Part shown: piece by piece, positions 30,883 to 37,384 of the stretch | Position numbering within the stretch: position 1 is the first letter of the stretch | Layout of the letters: each line of letters begins with the position of its first letter | Source of the DNA: Escherichia phage vB_vPM_PD06 | Sequence record: NC_052653.1 | Direction: 5' to 3' (one strand) | Length of the DNA: 64,000 bases | The notes under the pieces: model-generated | Told to the model about the DNA's origin: nothing | What the model saw: the letters and a program-made list of their open reading frames with translations, nothing else | Database searches by the model: none | Program-made: the position numbers and the translations under genes

Positions 30883-30958
30883 TGGTCGTGGTAAACGGAG
30901 TCGAACCGTTGTTTCTCGATTATCGGTCGAGTGTACTAACCATCTGTACGATACCACA
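30883..30958 (-). tRNA. tRNA-Ile (anticodon GAT)
   Basis: Hand fold: 7 bp acceptor (U1-G72), T arm AACGG/TTCGACT/CCGTT, anticodon stem CTCGA/TCGAG, loop CCGATAA (C at position 33 is unusual), CCA encoded. Confidence 0.55.
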
Positions 30959-30963
30959 ATAAT

Positions 30964-31060
30964 TGGCAGCAAGGTGAGGAATCGAACCCCTTGATCTATG
31001 GTTTGGAGCCATATTGAGTACCATACTCTTTTAAATCTACCCAGCTATGAGTTCCTTGAG
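30964..31060 (-). ncRNA. tRNA-like sequence with Trp-type (CCA) anticodon hairpin, non-canonical 5' half
   Basis: T arm AGGGG/TTCGATT/CCTCA, 3' acceptor CCTTGCT-G-CCA, perfect hairpin TATGG-CTCCAAA-CCATA and D-like GAGT...ACTC, but no matching 5' acceptor strand at canonical distance. Confidence 0.3.
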
Positions 31061-31104
31061 GTGTCAATGTAATTTAATCATTACACCAGAAGGGAGGTAT
31101 TTAG

Positions 31105-31183
31105 TGGAGGCGGGAATCGGATTTGAACCGATGATCTCCAGCATATGAAACTGGCGAGGACGACCAGACTCCTCTATCCCGCG
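31105..31183 (-). tRNA. tRNA with CAT anticodon (elongator Met or Ile2 type)
   Basis: T arm ATCGG/TTCAAAT/CCGAT, anticodon stem CCAGT/GCTGG, loop TTCATAT, 11-nt D loop; position 1-72 is an unpaired C-C. Confidence 0.5.
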
Positions 31184-31198
31184 CAATCTGTAATAATT

Positions 31199-31283
31199 TG
31201 GTAGCTAAGGTGAGACTCGAACTCACAATCCCTTGGGGCAATACGTTCTAAGCGTATCGTGTATACCATTCCACCACTTAGCC
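31199..31283 (-). tRNA. tRNA-Leu (anticodon TAG), type II
   Basis: 85 nt; acceptor GGCTAAG/CTTAGCT, anticodon stem ATACG/CGTAT, loop CTTAGAA, long variable arm, T arm GTGAG/TTCGAGT/CTCAC, CCA encoded. Confidence 0.6.
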
Positions 31284-31360
31284 ATAATAAGTACACCACT
31301 GTAAGAAGCCTCAATGTGCTATTGACAGTTAACCAAGTCTACTCCTTGGATGGTGTTATT

Positions 31361-31435
31361 TGGTGCAGAGAGATGGTAACGATCCATCCTTTCTACCTTT
31401 TCAGGGTAGCACTAATCCGTCTCAGCTATCTCTGC
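31361..31435 (-). tRNA. tRNA-Phe (anticodon GAA)
   Basis: Perfect acceptor GCAGAGA/TCTCTGC, anticodon stem CTACC/GGTAG, loop CTGAAAA; T loop ATCGTTA is atypical. Confidence 0.5.
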
Positions 31436-31440
31436 AAATT

Positions 31441-31516
31441 TGGTCAGTGCGGCAGGACTCGAACCTGCGACCTGAAGCGTCCAAGGCTCCCACGCTACCA
31501 ACTGCGCTACGCACTG
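31441..31516 (-). tRNA. tRNA-Pro (anticodon TGG)
   Basis: 76 nt; acceptor CAGTGCG/CGCACTG, D arm GCGC/AGTTGGTA/GCGT, anticodon loop CTTGGAC, T arm GCAGG/TTCGAGT/CCTGC, CCA encoded. Confidence 0.7.
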
Positions 31517-31523
31517 TAAATCT

Positions 31524-31598
31524 TGGCTGGAGATCTAGGAATCGAACCTAGTCATCACGACTTCAAAGGCCGTTGCCTTCCCACTAGGCTAATCTCCA
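31524..31598 (-). tRNA. tRNA-Gln (anticodon TTG)
   Basis: 75 nt; acceptor TGGAGAT/ATCTCCA, anticodon stem ACGGC/GTCGT, loop CTTTGAA, T arm CTAGG/TTCGATT/CCTAG, CCA encoded. Confidence 0.6.
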
Positions 31599-32029
31599 AT
31601 AAATTACTTCAGTGTTACCACAAAGTGACGAACTGCTTTTCGTGCAGCAGAAGCCAGAGGCTTAGCATACTTAAGTTCATCTTTTTCCATTATAAATTCT
31701 CTTTTAAATGAAAATGCAGGACTTATTGGCATTGCCTGCGCAAGCCCTCAAGGGGAACATAGGTTTTTGGATATTTAACGACCAGGATAACCATAAACCC
31801 GTCATCATTCACATTCAAGAGGTACACCATAAAACTGCCGGGGTCTTAAAACTATAATGATTCGCAAATCATTAATCAGACAGTTCGATGGCTCCTCGAT
31901 TTTAGCTCACACTAAGGCAGTGAATCTCCAATAAACTAAAAAATCACTTAAAAAGAACCGCTAGAGTTTGAAGGAGAAAACCATGAGCGAAAAGAGAAAT
32001 TTTCTCTAGCGATTCCATTTAAATAATCT

Positions 32030-32104
32030 TGGAGCGAGTAACAGGACTTGAACCTGCACCTGGAGGGTGGAAACCTCATATGCTACCATTAACACTATAC
32101 CCGC
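32030..32104 (-). tRNA. tRNA-Gly (anticodon TCC)
   Basis: 75 nt; acceptor GCGGGTA/TACTCGC, anticodon loop TTTCCAC closed by a 4 bp stem with one mismatch, T arm GCAGG/TTCAAGT/CCTGT, CCA encoded. Confidence 0.5.
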
Positions 32105-32159
32105 TTAACAATATTACTCTAACATACTATTAGCCCCTTTGTCAAGAGGCTTTTGATAC

Positions 32160-32489
32160 TTATTTTAAAATAGTAGATGCACCACGTCTGTTTAGATATG
32201 CAATAGTAAAGTCCAAATCACCTATTTCTTCAGGTTCCCACTGACCTTCTAAGCCATAACAAGAACAATGATATGCGTGTACTTCATAAAACAAAGATGT
32301 TTTCATATCATAAAAATAAACGTGAGATTCACCTTCATAATATGCACAATCATAAGTGGCAGAAAGAATTACAATGTTATCCTTATCTAACTCTACTTCA
32401 TAATATCTTTCAACATCTTCAATATCATCAAAACCATCGAAAACATTGATATTAAAATATTTCTCTAACTCTTTTTCTGTCACATACAC
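32160..32489 (-). CDS. hypothetical protein inside tRNA array
   Basis: 109 aa acidic, Tyr/Cys-rich ORF between tRNA-Gly and tRNA-Thr. Confidence 0.45.
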   Translation of the reverse strand: MYVTEKELEKYFNINVFDGFDDIEDVERYYEVELDKDNIVILSATYDCAYYEGESHVYFYDMKTSLFYEVHAYHCSCYGLEGQWEPEEIGDLDFTIAYLNRRGASTILK

Positions 32490-32506
32490 TCCTTTAGAGT
32501 TAAAAT

Positions 32507-32581
32507 TGGTGCTCCCACAAGGACTCGAACCCTGATAAGTTGCTTACAAGGCAACCGTAATAGCCGTTATACGATAGGAGC
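32507..32581 (-). tRNA. tRNA-Thr (anticodon TGT)
   Basis: 75 nt; acceptor GCTCCTA/TGGGAGC, anticodon stem GTTGC/GCAAC, loop CTTGTAA, T arm CAGGG/TTCGAGT/CCTTG, CCA encoded. Confidence 0.6.
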
Positions 32582-32587
32582 AATACT

Positions 32588-32664
32588 TGGACTCGGCAGG
32601 ATTCGATACCTGCAATTCCAGAAGCCTCTTGGCGACTGGGGGTTTACCTTAACTCTACAAGTCC
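32588..32664 (-). ncRNA. tRNA-like sequence, non-canonical interior
   Basis: 7 bp acceptor-like pairing GGACTTG/CGAGTCC and perfect T stem GCAGG/CCTGC around 8-nt loop TATCGAAT, but no canonical 5-7-5 anticodon arm. Confidence 0.25.
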
Positions 32665-32671
32665 ATAATTC

Positions 32672-32756
32672 TGGCGATGGATCAAGGATTTGAACCTTGC
32701 TAGAACTTTCGTTCACGGATTAACAGTCCGTCGCCCAACCACTAGGCCAATCCATC
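32672..32756 (-). tRNA. tRNA with Asn anticodon (GTT) and a long variable arm (type II-like)
   Basis: 85 nt; acceptor GATGGAT/ATCCATC, anticodon arm ACGGA-CTGTTAA-TCCGT, 15-nt variable region GAACGAAAGTTCTAG forming a GAAC/GTTC stem with GAAA loop, T arm CAAGG/TTCAAAT/CCTTG, CCA encoded. Confidence 0.5.
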
Positions 32757-32763
32757 TTTAATT

Positions 32764-32850
32764 TGGTGCAGGTAGTTGGACTCGAACCAACGAAGCCCCG
32801 AAGGGCAAGAGATTTACAGTCTCCAGCAATTGCCGCTATGCGATACCTAC
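32764..32850 (-). tRNA. tRNA-Tyr (anticodon GTA), type II
   Basis: 87 nt; acceptor GTAGGTA/TACCTGC, anticodon stem GGAGA/TCTCT, loop CTGTAAA, variable arm GCCC-TTCG-GGGC, T arm GTTGG/TTCGAGT/CCAAC, CCA encoded. Confidence 0.65.
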
Positions 32851-32855
32851 GTGTT

Positions 32856-32931
32856 TGGTACATCGTGAAGGATTCGAACCTTCGACCTTGGAGTTAAAAG
32901 CACCTTGCTCTACCAACTAAGCTAACGATGT
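32856..32931 (-). tRNA. tRNA-Lys (anticodon TTT) with weakly paired anticodon stem
   Basis: 76 nt; perfect acceptor ACATCGT/ACGATGT, D arm GCTT/AGTTGGTA/GAGC, T arm GAAGG/TTCGAAT/CCTTC; anticodon loop CTTTTAA flanked by AGGTG/CTCCA with two mismatches. Confidence 0.5.
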
Positions 32932-33065
32932 ATAAATTATCTTTAAAATAGCCAGTGTTTGCGGCACTTAGCTATGAAGTATTGGGGTATCGGTAAAGTG
33001 GTTACCGCCACTTGCCGAAAGTTTACTCTGCTAAAGTAAGATTACAAGCTACATTAAAGATAACT

Positions 33066-33151
33066 TGGCGGTAGATGTAGGACTTGAACCTACACGCCGT
33101 TTCCGACGACAGTTTAGCAAACTGTTGTGGCTACCATTTCACCAATCTACC
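33066..33151 (-). tRNA. tRNA-Ser (anticodon GCT), type II
   Basis: 86 nt; acceptor GGTAGAT/ATCTACC, anticodon stem ACAGT/ACTGT, loop TTGCTAA, variable arm CGTCG-GAAA-CGGCG, T arm GTAGG/TTCAAGT/CCTAC, CCA encoded. Confidence 0.65.
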
Positions 33152-33159
33152 GTTCTTAA

Positions 33160-33312
33160 TTATTCAAAACAACCGGAATCTTTTTGTTCTGCTTTTACCA
33201 TACGAATATTTTTACCATCTTCAGATTGTTGAAGATTAGAATACTCATAAACAACTTTATTATCTACAATCTTAACTCCGGTAACAACCTGTCCAATAGT
33301 TTTATAATTCAT
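33160..33312 (-). CDS. small hypothetical protein (50 aa)
   Basis: Six-frame ORF 33160-33360 overlaps tRNA-Ser at its 5' end; internal ATG at 33312 has AGGAG upstream. Confidence 0.3.
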   Translation of the reverse strand: MNYKTIGQVVTGVKIVDNKVVYEYSNLQQSEDGKNIRMVKAEQKDSGCFE

Positions 33313-33330
33313 AAAGCTCCTAGTTGAATT

Positions 33331-33420
33331 TGGAGGAAGATAATGGAGTCGAACCATCACCGTATCGCTACAATGGGCCAGGGTTCAAACCTGGTTGCGC
33401 ACCGCTGCGCCCTACCTTCC
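33331..33420 (-). tRNA. tRNA-Ser (anticodon TGA), type II
   Basis: 90 nt; acceptor GGAAGGT/ATCTTCC, anticodon stem CCAGG/CCTGG, loop TTTGAAC, ~19-nt variable arm, T arm GATGG/TTCGACT/CCATT, CCA encoded. Confidence 0.6.
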
Positions 33421-33435
33421 CGTTATCATACTTTA

Positions 33436-33465
33436 AATCTAACATAAAACTATCTTGCTTGTCAA
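33436..33465 (-). promoter_or_regulatory. candidate sigma70-like promoter inside tRNA array
   Basis: Minus strand TTGACA, 18-nt spacer, TAGATT; upstream of tRNA-Ser(TGA). Confidence 0.3.
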
Positions 33466-33483
33466 GTAGTTTTTAAAACTTTT

Positions 33484-33565
33484 TGGTCGGGGTGACAGGA
33501 TTCGAACCTGCATACTCCAATTACTCGGTTAACGCCTGATTAGAAGTCAGGTGAGATACACCCCG
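33484..33565 (-). ncRNA. tRNA-Arg(TCT)-like sequence lacking a canonical D arm
   Basis: 7 bp GC-rich acceptor CGGGGTG/CACCCCG, T arm GCAGG/TTCGAAT/CCTGT, perfect hairpin CCTGA-CTTCTAA-TCAGG, but only 7 nt between acceptor and that hairpin and a 23-nt insert before the T arm. Confidence 0.35.
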
Positions 33566-33637
33566 TTTTCACAGTAACTATAACAAAAAACTAAGTGAAT
33601 GTCAAGATATTTTTACTAAAATTATTATTTAAATTGA

Positions 33638-33743
33638 AGCCTAGTTATGGAATCGAACCATATTTCGTATTTAGTTAGACAAAGCGGTCTAACATATTTT
33701 TCAGGCTTTGATGGCCTCGGAATTACCAAATACCCTACTAGGC
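33638..33743 (-). ncRNA. 106-nt tRNA-like element
   Basis: T arm TATGG/TTCGATT/CCATA and exact 7 bp acceptor pairing GCCTAGT/ACTAGGC 106 nt apart; interior has hairpins AGGC-CATCAAA-GCCT and GTTAGAC-CGCTTT-GTCTAAC; no CCA encoded. Confidence 0.25.
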
Positions 33744-33745
33744 GT

Positions 33746-33831
33746 TGGTGCAAGTGGAGGGATTCGAACCCTCAATCATTTAAGCGTTGCGTTTTAAGCA
33801 CAATGTGTATCACCAATTCCACCACACTTGC
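33746..33831 (-). tRNA. tRNA-Leu (anticodon TAA), type II
   Basis: 86 nt; acceptor GCAAGTG/CACTTGC, anticodon stem TTGTG/CGCAA, loop CTTAAAA, T arm GAGGG/TTCGAAT/CCCTC, CCA encoded. Confidence 0.6.
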
Positions 33832-33862
33832 ATATAGGAGATGCATAGCATCTCCTTTTAAA

Positions 33863-33938
33863 TGGTGGTTCCCCAGGGTTACAATCCCTGCCCTCGACAC
33901 TTATGAGGTGTGCGCTCTCGTCAGTGAGCTATGGAACC
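33863..33938 (-). tRNA. tRNA with CAT anticodon (second copy; Met or Ile2 type)
   Basis: 76 nt; D arm GCTC/GAGC perfect, anticodon loop CTCATAA, T stem CAGGG/CCCTG with atypical loop ATTGTAA, acceptor has one mismatch at 7-66. Confidence 0.45.
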
Positions 33939-33945
33939 TTGAATA

Positions 33946-34212
33946 TTAAGCATACTGGGTCATTTCACCAGCTTCGCGTTTCTCCAGAAGAACTGTAATC
34001 AAAGCAATAGCTGCTTCTTCTTCGTGAGGAAGCCCCATTTCATCCAGAAGAGCAAGGAAGTCAATTACCAAACTTTCTGTTTTAAGGCTAACGCTACCAT
34101 TTTCGTTTTCAGTAAGAACTGATTCAGGTTCAAAAATAAAGATTGCTCCACCTTTATTATCAATCAATACGTGCTTCTCAATCAGTTCTTTACCATAAGT
34201 ACGTTCTGTCAT
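33946..34212 (-). CDS. hypothetical protein
   Basis: 88 aa acidic ORF. Confidence 0.4.
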   Translation of the reverse strand: MTERTYGKELIEKHVLIDNKGGAIFIFEPESVLTENENGSVSLKTESLVIDFLALLDEMGLPHEEEAAIALITVLLEKREAGEMTQYA

Positions 34213-34392
34213 AGTTTTCTCCTTTTTGTTTAACTTGGGCTTATCTTAGCAAATAACTAGCTATGTTGTCAACTAGTTTTTACAATATTTTTTCTTGATC
34301 TGTAACCTAGTGTATAACCGCATACAAAGGATACAATAGCAATAAAAACAGATAAGCCAAAAATAATTTCTGTAGACATACTGTTTCCTTAA

Positions 34393-34685: not shown

Positions 34686-36419
34686 TTAGTCAACCTGGAT
34701 GGTTCCCATAGTACGAAGAACCTCTACATCAACACGGTTGCGGATATCAGTGAATGTTTCATCACGACCTTCTACTTGTGGTGTAATAACCTTACCATTC
34801 TTGAAGATAACTTGTAACTCATTGTCTTCATCCTGGATATCTTTAAAAGAAAGATTATCTACAAGAGAAAGATTACCATTGGTATCATTAACAACCTTAA
34901 TAAAACCTTTTGCAGAGCGTTTACCAGGATCAGTTTTAGGCTCCTTACTTACCAAAATTTCGTGTTCACCGATGATACTACCTGTTGCTTTAACAGCAAA
35001 ACCAAAAGTATCTCGTGTATTGAACTGATAAGTATAACTACCAACACCAAATACAATATTGGAAGCTGCAAAACCTTTCTTCTTCAGTCGGCGTAAGATC
35101 TCGTGTTCTCGTTCAACAGTAATAGAATCACCATAAATCATACCGATATGCTGATCAAGAACCTTGTAGCCTTTTCGGTTGATAGTACCACCAAACACTT
35201 CCCAAAGGATTTGAATAGAACCTACTGCTTCACAATAAGGAATCTCATAAGTTTCATCAATACAGTCAGCAACACTGCAATCCTGAAGAACATTGTAATA
35301 CTTATTAACATCAGCCAAATGAACTACTTCAGTGGCTGTCGCAATACCATTATTTAAGAGGTCTTGATAGTTATCAAAAGATTCAACATTGTATCCTGCA
35401 ACAACTTTAACCGGATCTCCTGAATCTGGACGAATAACAAGACGACCATTTCGTGACATAATGGAATCTTTCAATTCTACCAGAATGCGAGTCAATACAG
35501 CCCAATAGTCATAAGAGTCTGCTACATATGAACAAAAACCTTCTGGAACAATTTCTTCGATATAACGACGAAGAAACTCTTTTTCTGCTACATAACGAAG
35601 CCCATCTACATCATCTTTAAGATGTGGGAAATGTTTCTTCAGATCTTCAACAATAGATCCAATGTTAGTCGTTGCTACTGAATGTTCTGTTGCCGGAATC
35701 GAACCTGCAACAAACTGATCATAATCAATACCATAATAGTCATGCACAGTTTCAATAGCCAGAATATTATCTGTTCCTGTGAACGATGCCAAGTGAGCGA
35801 TACCACTCTTATAACCATCTTCGATATTACTTAAACCACGTAGGCTAAAATCATGACACTGGAAGTTAACGTGATCAATATTATCACACGTTGCCATCGC
35901 ATATGCCATAGCGATACGCTTATACTGAAAAGCTGCTGTGGCATTAGTCATTGTCTTCCAAGTTTCATCTGACAACAGTGTTTCCACATAGTTAGTTAAC
36001 CAAAAGAATTTTTCTAAAGTATTATGCACAGTAAACACAGGAACACCAATAGGACACAAAACACCTTCTGGCAGAGATCGAACTTCCAGCGGAAGATAAC
36101 CTAAATCGTGCAATTCTCCCCAACATTCCGCAGAAGGAGCAGAAGCACCTAACGCATTTTTAGACATACGATAAAATTTATTTACTGCTGCACTACGAGA
36201 CATTTTAAAGAAGCTATCCCACATAGTTACAAGAGCATCAGTGACTGCTCGACGAATACCTAAAACAATCACACCACGTGCTTCACGATCTGCATAGTGT
36301 GCAAAGTTTTTATCATTACGAGGAGTTAAATTAGAGAAAATAAGTTTTGTATTTTGGTTGTACATCTGCTTGTGACCAGGTTTGTACCAATCAGTAGCAA
36401 AAGGTGCAAAAATATTCAT
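34686..36419 (-). CDS. nadV: nicotinamide phosphoribosyltransferase (NAMPT/NadV family)
   Basis: 577 aa; N-terminal TDWYKPGH motif and RPDSGDP motif characteristic of NAMPT-type phosphoribosyltransferases. Confidence 0.75.
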   Translation of the reverse strand: MNIFAPFATDWYKPGHKQMYNQNTKLIFSNLTPRNDKNFAHYADREARGVIVLGIRRAVTDALVTMWDSFFKMSRSAAVNKFYRMSKNALGASAPSAECWGELHDLGYLPLEVRSLPEGVLCPIGVPVFTVHNTLEKFFWLTNYVETLLSDETWKTMTNATAAFQYKRIAMAYAMATCDNIDHVNFQCHDFSLRGLSNIEDGYKSGIAHLASFTGTDNILAIETVHDYYGIDYDQFVAGSIPATEHSVATTNIGSIVEDLKKHFPHLKDDVDGLRYVAEKEFLRRYIEEIVPEGFCSYVADSYDYWAVLTRILVELKDSIMSRNGRLVIRPDSGDPVKVVAGYNVESFDNYQDLLNNGIATATEVVHLADVNKYYNVLQDCSVADCIDETYEIPYCEAVGSIQILWEVFGGTINRKGYKVLDQHIGMIYGDSITVEREHEILRRLKKKGFAASNIVFGVGSYTYQFNTRDTFGFAVKATGSIIGEHEILVSKEPKTDPGKRSAKGFIKVVNDTNGNLSLVDNLSFKDIQDEDNELQVIFKNGKVITPQVEGRDETFTDIRNRVDVEVLRTMGTIQVD

Positions 36420-36490
36420 AGTTATGTCTCCTTGTTTGTTAATGTGGGAGTATCTTACTAAGCATACTCCCTATTGTCAACACTTATTAT

Positions 36491-37384
36491 TTAAAAATTC
36501 CACACGTATGGAGATACAATTTGTTGTTGCAAATCTGACTGATTCTTAACAAGAACACCAGAATCTTCTTGGATGTTATCTTCCCACACATTAAGAGAAT
36601 GAATGCAGTCAAAGTGCTCACTTAACTCTTTAAGACCTTTAGAAAAGATACCGTGTGTAACATATAGCTCAATCTTACCTGCGTTACGAGCACGTAGCAC
36701 TTTAGCCAATTCGATAAAAGTTCTACCACCATCACAGATATCATCTACGATCATCAGGTTACGCTTATTGAAATCCTGTACAGAAATGTCTGTACGAACA
36801 ATAGCACCTGTTGCGGTATCTCTAACCTTCTCTGCACAGAACACATCTAAAGACATTTTCTTAGATAATTTAAATATTTTCTTAAGAGCACCACCATCAG
36901 GGCTAACAAGAGCAAAATTCTCCATACGTAACTTCCACTTTAAAGTTTCGTAAGCAATCTCTTCTTGAGGCATTACACAGAGTCTGTCAAACACTGCTGG
37001 AGTAACATCACTATGCGGATCAGCAACGATAACACGTGAGAAATTTAATGAATTAATTATAGAAGCAAATGCTTTAACTCCGAATGCTTCCCCAGGCTCA
37101 CACACTCTGTCTTGTCGTGCATACGGCACATACAACATGAGTAAATCAACACAATATGGTTTATGATATAGCATATTGTCCAATGCATTCTTAGTCATAA
37201 CCAAAGTCATCAAGTCTTTAGCAGATCTTACTTCTAAAGTGAGTAAGATTCTGTCTGTAGCATGATTGAAACCTGATAGATTCGTATCTAATTGAACATG
37301 TTGTTCTCCACCAGAGAATGTAAACACTTTAACGTCTACATCAGTAACATAACAGTCAACACCATGCAGAATACTAACTTTCAT
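36491..37384 (-). CDS. prs: ribose-phosphate pyrophosphokinase (PRPP synthetase)
   Basis: 297 aa; PRPP-binding motif MIVDDICDGGRTF; adjacent to nadV. Confidence 0.7.
   Translation of the reverse strand: MKVSILHGVDCYVTDVDVKVFTFSGGEQHVQLDTNLSGFNHATDRILLTLEVRSAKDLMTLVMTKNALDNMLYHKPYCVDLLMLYVPYARQDRVCEPGEAFGVKAFASIINSLNFSRVIVADPHSDVTPAVFDRLCVMPQEEIAYETLKWKLRMENFALVSPDGGALKKIFKLSKKMSLDVFCAEKVRDTATGAIVRTDISVQDFNKRNLMIVDDICDGGRTFIELAKVLRARNAGKIELYVTHGIFSKGLKELSEHFDCIHSLNVWEDNIQEDSGVLVKNQSDLQQQIVSPYVWNF

Follow-up and report, generated by a model that had tools for sequence, protein, structure and literature searches.

What kind of gene is an element that carries the acceptor stem and T arm of a transfer RNA (tRNA) around an unfamiliar interior? 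The element spans 106 nucleotides (nt), at positions 33638-33743 of a 64,000-nt stretch of Escherichia phage vB_vPM_PD06 (NC_052653.1; "the window" below means this whole stretch), the DNA of a phi92-like E. coli myophage (Justusliebigvirus, Stephanstirmvirinae). The original prediction, made from the letters of the window, described a tRNA-like element bracketed by an exact acceptor complement of 7 base pairs (bp) and a canonical T arm. On these points it was right: the boundaries are exact, the acceptor strand at 33743-33737 pairs fully with 33645-33639, the T arm occupies 33662-33646, and a family model and covariation support the tRNA-like assignment. The gene lies on the minus strand, which the prediction left unstated. 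It is, with near certainty, a genuine, selected, tRNA-shaped RNA gene.

The full RNA, 5' to 3', is GCCUAGU AG GGUAUU-UGGU-AAUUCC G AGGC-CAUCAAA-GCCU G AAAAAUAU GUUAGAC-CGCUUU-GUCUAAC UAAAUACGAAA UAUGG-UUCGAUU-CCAUA ACUAGGC U. Its parts, all on the minus strand, are the following.

33638-33743, minus strand: the whole tRNA-like gene, 106 nt, with the RNA 5' end at 33743 and the discriminator U at 33638.
33737-33743, minus strand: 5' strand of the acceptor stem, GCCUAGU, pairing exactly over 7 bp with 33639-33645; double changes at 5 of the 7 pairs in the family.
33719-33734, minus strand: D arm, GGUAUU/UGGU/AAUUCC, a 6-bp stem and a tetraloop with the G18/G19 equivalents; three pairs covary.
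33718, minus strand: invariant G 5' of the anticodon-like stem, whose partner is the invariant G at 33702; kept in 32 of 32 variants.
33703-33717, minus strand: anticodon-like arm, a 4-bp stem AGGC/GCCU with the 7-nt loop CAUCAAA (33713-33707); two of four pairs covary.
33694-33702, minus strand: invariant G and A-rich 5' flank of the variable region, G AAAAAUAU; G-AAAA is kept family-wide.
33674-33693, minus strand: variable-arm hairpin GUUAGAC CGCUUU GUCUAAC, 7 bp.
33663-33673, minus strand: 3' flank of the variable region, UAAAUACGAAA; family consensus (U/G)AAUAC AUA, with AUAC invariant.
33646-33662, minus strand: T arm UAUGG/UUCGAUU/CCAUA, canonical; the stem covaries.
33638-33645, minus strand: 3' strand of the acceptor stem, ACUAGGC, and the discriminator U.

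The interior had been described as two hairpins in place of the D and anticodon arms. It holds three: a D arm, an anticodon-like arm and a variable-arm hairpin. The D arm was overlooked because the D stem of the phi92-like clade has one U.U mismatch. The minimum-free-energy fold of the element (z-score -2.7) contains three helices (acceptor, variable and T), to which the centroid adds the anticodon-like stem; the D arm is recovered by neither. The variable region, counted from the 3' G of the anticodon-like arm to the T stem, is 39 nt long and holds the 7-bp hairpin. Numbered from its 3' side the anticodon-like loop reads C32, A33, U34, C35, A36, A37, A38. The prediction held that UCA could be read in a non-canonical register only and that a suppressor role was therefore unsupported. 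The register argument fails, since UCA occupies positions 3-5 of the 7-nt loop, as an anticodon normally does, and judged from the sequence the element may still act as a suppressor. What is non-canonical is the A in place of U at position 33 and the 4-bp stem. The trailer after the discriminator is UCA in this copy and CCC in sister phages, not CCA, so that CCA would need to be added; most homologues encode U-CCA.

The element belongs to a widespread phage family. Its region is 100% identical to that of Escherichia phage vB_vPM_PD114 and 97-99.8% identical to those of other phi92-like myophages, and blastn finds the element in about 28 phi92-like phages. More distant blastn copies occur in Erwinia phages Hena1 and pEp_SNUABM_01 (annotated tRNA-sup(tca), 108 nt) and, unannotated, in the N4-like Salmonella phage UTK0002. 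With the UTK0002 copy as query 226 records were found, covering Vequintavirinae: rV5-like and Av-05 phages of E. coli, Seunavirus of Salmonella and Cronobacter, and Mydovirus of Klebsiella, Raoultella and Proteus. GenBank labels of the homologues range from none through hypothetical protein, tRNA-TERM/Stop(tta), Sup, Undet, tRNA-OTHER and tRNA-Lys to tRNA-???(atcc). Further members came from a loose DNA pattern run on IMG/VR and metagenomes, followed by a covariance model, R1, built from the family. Both were needed, as tight DNA patterns returned only near-identical copies from IMG/VR. R1 separates 24 metagenome and IMG/VR members and this copy (80-114 bits) from ordinary tRNAs; its scores are bimodal, with family members at 80-117 bits and every ordinary tRNA at 27 bits or less. 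This copy scores 95.9 bits (E=3e-19). In all, 32 distinct variants were parsed, from Vequintavirinae, Stephanstirmvirinae, the one N4-like phage and metagenomes.

Outside phages the searches were empty. The family signature has no match in 185,579 bacterial and archaeal species genomes, and blastn finds no match to the element among 5,426 complete E. coli genomes. From these absences the family appears to be specific to lytic phages, and a bacterial or prophage origin was rejected. A covariance-model search (tRNA, tmRNA, Rfam) had been proposed as a check on the element's identity, and no other family emerged from it: Rfam assigned none, either in a gathering-score scan of the whole window or in a scan of 33400-33900 at E<=10. 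ARAGORN made no call on the element in standard and relaxed runs, and a literature search for the family returned no description of it.

The cloverleaf is maintained by compensatory change. Aligned with MAFFT, 17 variants show pairing in 99.4% of cells and double changes at 10 pairs. In a model-guided alignment of 31 homologues 99.3% of cells pair, with compensatory double changes at 12 of 19 pairs; when the 3' partners were slid along this alignment as a control, pairing fell to 25-47%. The four core helices (acceptor, D, anticodon-like and T) all covary. RNAalifold independently predicts the same cloverleaf, with D-arm pairs 10:25 to 15:20, and lengthens the D stem by two invariant pairs, U14:A21 and U15:A20, to 6 bp closed by a tetraloop. 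Single-sequence folds of homologues likewise show a clean 6-bp D stem and tetraloop. The tertiary structure leaves its mark as well. The third base of the tetraloop is G where the T loop is UUCGAUU and U where it is UUAGAUU, so that the elbow pair changes from G19:C56 to U19:A56 (6 of 17 sequences), and this covariation indicates an RNA that is L-shaped like a tRNA. Among the unpaired positions, A8, the two Gs that flank the anticodon-like stem, the A-run that follows this stem and the AUAC ahead of the T arm are invariant, which suggests that the junction is structured.

Conservation is also seen at short range. Within the phi92-like clade the element changes only in the variable-hairpin loop or in ways that yield G.U pairs, and the trailer and spacer have substitutions and indels; the element is thus more conserved than the flanking spacer. 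The same holds for the hairpin itself, whose within-clade changes are confined to the loop or are G.U-compatible. Different hairpins occupy the variable-arm site in other clades, the hairpin having been swapped several times, and one 12-nt hairpin loop, GAACUAACAGUA, is common to distant family members. An intron-like insertion, one of the earlier suggestions, does not fit: ARAGORN run with introns assigned each of five homologues a different isotype and intron, and the 39 extra nt lie in the variable region with conserved flanks.

The A-run and hairpin can be read in another way, as an intrinsic terminator of the plus strand whose tRNA look is secondary. The plus strand over 33674-33693, followed by ATATTTTTCA, does score as terminator-like, and an A-run lies 5' of the variable hairpin in every family member. 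Such a terminator would account for only about 30 of the 106 nt, leaving the covariation of all four core helices aside; moreover, between 913 and about 37.8 kb the coding is otherwise on the minus strand, and nothing obvious is there to terminate. This explanation has next to no chance of being correct.

The element sits inside a tRNA cluster. ARAGORN finds 15 tRNA genes at 30883-33938, all on the minus strand, and Rfam adds one atypical tRNA at 33487-33565. The signals nearest to the element are these.

34243-34272, minus strand: sigma-70-like promoter TTGACA-N18-TAAGAT, a consensus match only.
33938-33863, minus strand: tRNA-Met, upstream of the element.
33831-33746, minus strand: tRNA-Leu(UAA), upstream of the element.
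33577-33605, minus strand: promoter-like site TTGACA-N17-TATAGT, a consensus match directly downstream of the element.

Two nt separate the start of the element from the CCA of the preceding tRNA-Leu(UAA), and within clusters the family elements always lie 2-5 nt past the CCA of another tRNA. From this 2-nt gap, the element is probably made from the same precursor as tRNA-Leu. As far as consensus matches can tell, the 34272-34243 promoter probably drives an open reading frame (ORF) at 34212-33946, tRNA-Met, tRNA-Leu and the element, and the site at 33605-33577 is a putative end mark of this transcription unit, serving the neighbouring atypical tRNA. The other neighbours encode NAD-salvage and packaging proteins, none of them tied to tRNA.

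The gene can be lost. It is deleted in the phi92-like isolates KKE7M, EC_OE_11, JohannJBalmer and 92CQ, and from these four natural deletions it is dispensable for propagation. The deletion in KKE7M (L004, junction at about locus positions 545-548) is precise, joins the CTAG of both acceptor strands and keeps both neighbours. Is the element then a decaying tRNA paralogue, kept only as a spacer or as a processing signal (an RNase P or RNase E site) in the tRNA precursor? Its place between tRNAs, the clean loss through CTAG microhomology in KKE7M and the loss in three further isolates with both neighbours retained, and a loop that is not conserved family-wide are what such a relic would display. 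Against it stand the cloverleaf and elbow pair, which compensatory changes have preserved in two subfamilies and an N4-like phage, the invariant single-stranded flanks (G..G, AAAA and AUAC), a loop that is fixed within each class, and conservation above that of the adjacent spacer. A relic is very unlikely. The same evidence tells against the degenerate gene that had been suggested before, and a pure processing element, also suggested, would have no need of an elbow tertiary pair or a class-constrained loop.

Several neighbours of the element deserve mention in their own right. A 79-nt tRNA-like gene at 33487-33565 (minus strand), with its own strong predicted promoter at 33605-33577, scores 40 bits under the Rfam tRNA model and is missed by ARAGORN. 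It folds without a D arm (a 7-nt linker is present instead); its anticodon arm is normal and carries UCU (Arg), its 4-bp variable hairpin is CCGA-GUAA-UUGG, and a T arm is present. In phage PATM it is labelled tRNA-Undet, and KKE7M has kept it. Between tRNA-Ile and tRNA-Met, at 30968-31045 (minus strand), lies a weakly tRNA-like stretch with a T arm and the end ...GCUGCCA; it scores 18.4 bits under R1, folds no better than its shuffles (z=-0.16), has no ARAGORN or Rfam call and may be a decayed tRNA. On the plus strand a 100-codon ORF at 33647-33949, antisense to the element, tRNA-Leu and tRNA-Met, appears as a hypothetical protein in several GenBank records and is almost certainly spurious. 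Just upstream of the cluster, at 34686-37384 (minus strand), are an NAPRTase-family gene and a PRPP-synthetase-like gene (NAD salvage), and the terminase and portal genes are on its other side (25616-29366). In Raoultella phage Ro1 (L009 5-397) an HNH endonuclease gene lies between tRNA-Thr and the element, comparable to segB in the T4 tRNA cluster.

What the gene does must be read mainly from its anticodon-like loop, which falls into four classes.

Loop N-A-U-C-A-A-R, reading UCA: 12 variants including this copy; discriminator always U; phi92-like phages, Henunavirus, UTK0002 and metagenomes.
Loop C-C-N-N-C-C-A-G, 8 nt, NCC when counted from the 3' side: 13 variants; discriminator U; Seunavirus and Mydovirus.
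Loop UUUUUAA, reading UUU: 5 variants; discriminator A; rV5-like phages.
Loop UUUAUAA, reading UAU: 3 variants; discriminator U or C; Av-05-like phages.

Outside all four classes is a variant on metagenome contig L054, with a 6-nt loop GUGAUA and discriminator U. Within the UCA class positions 33-37 (AUCAA) are fixed in 12 of 12 variants and positions 32 and 38 vary, as in real anticodon loops. Across the family the discriminator tracks the loop class. A36-A37-A38 is the motif of tRNAs that read codons starting with U. By the identity rules of tRNA synthetases, UUU with A73 fits LysRS, NCC with U73, G1:C72 and C2:G71 fits GlyRS, and U73 with C35 and A36 comes closest to CysRS. These rules are partly echoed in PMC5389517, where the selC* tRNA-Cys(UCA) likewise has U73. 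In the rV5-like loci examined the family element is the sole Lys-type gene, and the rV5-type member, alone among the homologues, passes the Rfam tRNA model (35.5 bits). Unusual loops are not limited to this family: Mydovirus tRNA clusters contain extra ARAGORN "tRNA-???" calls with 2-base anticodons and 6-nt loops (L020 928-997 and 2598-2672; L028 5383-5457), one of them directly upstream of the element, and odd anticodon loops seem common in Mydovirus.

The tentatively preferred explanation, held at somewhat less than even confidence as a whole, is that the element is a tRNA that is processed, can be charged and reads UGA weakly, built on a scaffold that the phages have re-targeted, perhaps a nuclease-resistant one. 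The element would be transcribed together with tRNA-Met and tRNA-Leu from the 34272-34243 promoter. RNase P would cut the 5' end, and the 3' end would be trimmed and CCA added. The RNA would then fold into an L shape with a tRNA-Sec-like D arm and be aminoacylated, its U73 and C35/A36 being suited to a U73-dependent CysRS or GlyRS. It would read UGA with low efficiency and represent the opal type in a re-targeted scaffold family (UUU, UAU, NCC and UCA). Finally, its unusual body and fast-changing loop would probably let it escape host tRNA-directed nucleases. Three Mydovirus copies differ only at loop nt 33 and 34, and PrrC cleaves just 5' of nt 34. Phage tRNAs have been proposed to escape such nucleases through anticodon-loop mutations (PMC10264068), and large variable-arm hairpins are compatible with translation (PMC7590224). 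From transcription to decoding these steps are predicted from sequence, and decoding is the weakest. With regard to the CCA step, the same phage encodes Phi92_gp158, a 197-residue protein (MH675927.1 97067-97660; L121 12068-12661, minus strand) with a sub-threshold match to the PolyA_pol head domain (E=0.0017). By this match to the CCA-adding enzyme family, it could be relevant to tRNAs, including the element, that lack an encoded CCA.

A number of observations weigh against a UGA-reading tRNA. First, the structure departs from that of canonical tRNAs where decoding is concerned. In place of a 5-bp anticodon stem and U33, which is near-universal in tRNA, the element has four Watson-Crick pairs flanked by an invariant G.G, and A33; the UCA at loop positions 3-5 thus comes after A33 and on a shortened stem, although the purine at position 37 (A37) is present. 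The NCC class has an 8-nt loop. The RF00005 and tRNA-Sec models find no match on 33638-33743 even at E<=10, and ARAGORN misses the element. Second, the four isolates noted above do without it. Third, no use for it was seen in the window or the next 50 kb. TGA is a normal stop in 14 of the 79 predicted genes of the window, and no readthrough target was found there, the in-frame extensions past these 14 stops being 0-15 codons long. These extensions are shorter than those after TAA (median 3 vs 8, p=0.027), a comparison confounded by ATGA overlaps, and the short-extension (backup-stop) trend is not reproduced in the next 50 kb of this phage (p=0.87). One long TGA extension, past the DNA polymerase gene, enters a gene that has its own Shine-Dalgarno sequence and ATG. 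TGA recoding was accordingly rejected for the window and the next 50 kb, with no readthrough fusions in the window and no reproduction of the backup-stop trend. No genomic sign of reliance on UGA decoding was found in these two stretches, and a weak suppressor would leave none.

Much of this evidence would suit an RNA that is processed and L-shaped and stays off the ribosome: a non-decoding tRNA mimic that binds, titrates or is modified by a tRNA-binding factor. Candidate partners are a host anticodon nuclease or other tRNA-directed defence, a synthetase, a SelA/SelB-type protein or a phage enzyme. The element's loop would imitate the anticodon loop of the tRNA that is targeted. The non-canonical anticodon arm (4 bp, invariant G.G, A or C at 33, an 8-nt loop in the NCC class and a 6-nt loop in L054), the failure of tRNA detectors, the dispensability in natural isolates and the lack of a TGA recoding signal all speak for such a mimic. 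So does the change of loop nt 33 and 34 between the three Mydovirus copies, which match one another over the rest of their 106 nt. Precedents exist: allo-tRNA(UAU) is inactive in translation and linked to toxin-antitoxin loci, some irregular tRNAs are charged yet unused, and a tRNA-Other is found in B. cereus (PMC5389517). On the other hand, a discriminator that tracks the loop, with fixed positions 33-37 and variable 32/38, is what selection for aminoacylation and decoding would produce; a decoy would need abundance; and no co-distributed partner protein was found, the 190-residue class-II-like protein described below not being one. The mimic is a real possibility, short of an even chance and only slightly less likely than the UGA-reading tRNA.

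A further proposal, and an unlikely one, is that this scaffold, private to large enterobacterial myophages, exists to counter host defences. It combines a tRNA-Sec-like D arm, a giant structured variable domain and a shortened anticodon arm with a loop that is re-targeted to Lys, Ile-like, Gly and opal forms and that changes at nt 33/34 between otherwise identical copies. The RNA would serve either as a replacement tRNA that is proof against nucleases or as a decoy that diverts tRNA-cleaving immunity.

In such a device the scaffold might be charged by an unconventional enzyme, for which a 190-residue, class-II-like protein is the candidate by sequence. It is encoded by the same phage outside the window (MH675927.1 124336-124908; L121 39337-39909, minus strand). 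It is labelled seryl-tRNA synthetase in GenBank and histidyl-tRNA synthetase in PHROGs (phrog_4806, E=4e-71), has a faint Pfam match to the class-II core with motif-2-like and motif-3-like segments recognised by eye, and has no sequence match in PDB or NCBIfam. It is too small for a normal synthetase. The protein occurs in 270 phage records, from phi92-like phages, Phapecoctavirus, Henunavirus, Certrevirus, Acinetobacter T4-like phages, Caulobacter giant phages and Microcystis phages. As a dedicated synthetase partner of the element it was rejected: Phapecoctavirus has the protein and a tRNA cluster without the element, and the rV5-like phages have the element and are not among the protein matches.

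The phages that carry the gene (rV5-like, phi92-like, PVP-SE1-like and Klebsiella Mydovirus) are widely used as model and therapeutic phages. In their genomes it is inconsistently annotated, missed or overlaid by a spurious ORF, and the family model R1 allows uniform annotation. If the RNA decodes, it would be a natural, re-targetable tRNA body with a very large variable domain, useful in genetic-code engineering, and E. coli would receive an opal-reading tRNA from some coliphages. A mimic, in turn, would mean that an RNA also takes part in the struggle of phages with defences that cleave tRNA.

How does the element compare with known systems? It shares with canonical tRNAs a 7-bp acceptor stem, a 5-bp T stem, a 7-nt T-Psi-C-type loop and the elements of the elbow (G18-Psi55 and G19-C56), namely GG in the D tetraloop and C in the T loop. 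It differs in its variable region, which at 39 nt is longer than those of class I (4-5 nt) and class II (about 10-24 nt) tRNAs. Its four pairs and G.G leave the D/anticodon arm one layer short of that in canonical tRNA and tRNA-Sec.

Of the molecules described so far, tRNA-Sec, the allo-tRNAs and selC* tRNA-Cys come nearest. tRNA-Sec (RF01852) is similar in its 6-bp D stem with a 4-nt loop, its long variable arm and its UCA triplet. The element's loop differs at position 33 only from the E. coli tRNA-Sec loop, CUUCAAA. Among the Rfam tRNA-clan models tRNA-Sec is the best for the Av-05, PVP-SE1, KPP-1 and LNA4 homologues, at 23.7-29.4 bits against a threshold of 47. The differences are nevertheless large. 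The acceptor/T branch is 7/5 in the element and 8/5 (13 bp) in bacterial tRNA-Sec; A8 of the element faces the last T-stem base, which makes an eighth pair impossible. The anticodon stem has 4 bp instead of 6, position 33 is A instead of U, the discriminator is U instead of G73, and the 39-nt variable region has long single-stranded flanks.

As described by Mukai et al. (2017, PMC5389517), the allo-tRNAs and selC* tRNA-Cys themselves resemble tRNA-Sec in their long D stem, their tetraloop and their long V arm. They share these features with the phage family, and in both a single scaffold bears very diverse anticodons, UAU and stop-reading ones among them; selC* tRNA-Cys also combines U73 with UCA, some allo-tRNAs occur in phages, and their function is partly non-translational (PMC5389517). 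Allo-tRNAs are, however, 8/4 or 9/3 with longer anticodon stems, whereas all 32 family variants are 7/5 with a shorter one. The family has its own conserved variable-region flanks, and its hosts are large lytic Enterobacterales phages.

The T4 species 1 and 2 RNAs (rnaC and rnaD) are comparable: they are stable small RNAs whose genes close a phage tRNA cluster and lie on the strand of its tRNAs, and in rnaC the T arm is preceded by an extra hairpin. In rnaC, however, a single long hairpin replaces separate D and anticodon arms. Homology was rejected, as R1 matches only ordinary T4 tRNAs (21 bits or less); the two are positional analogues only. For transfer-messenger RNA (tmRNA), ARAGORN made no call and the Rfam tmRNA model reached 7.1 bits, through the T loop only.

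Anti-defence phage tRNAs, such as the T5 tRNA-Lys that acts against PARIS (PMC11464382), are likewise accessory tRNA genes of large lytic coliphages. Their resistance lies in changes of the anticodon stem-loop (PMC11464382; PMC10264068 and PMC11555353, retron effectors), and nt 33 and 34 are the ones that vary in otherwise identical family copies. Those tRNAs have a canonical cloverleaf and demonstrated decoding, whereas the element has a remodelled body and is known from sequence. The family fails the defining features of tRNA-Sec and the allo-tRNAs. The element is best described as a new form among the non-canonical, tRNA-Sec-like tRNAs.

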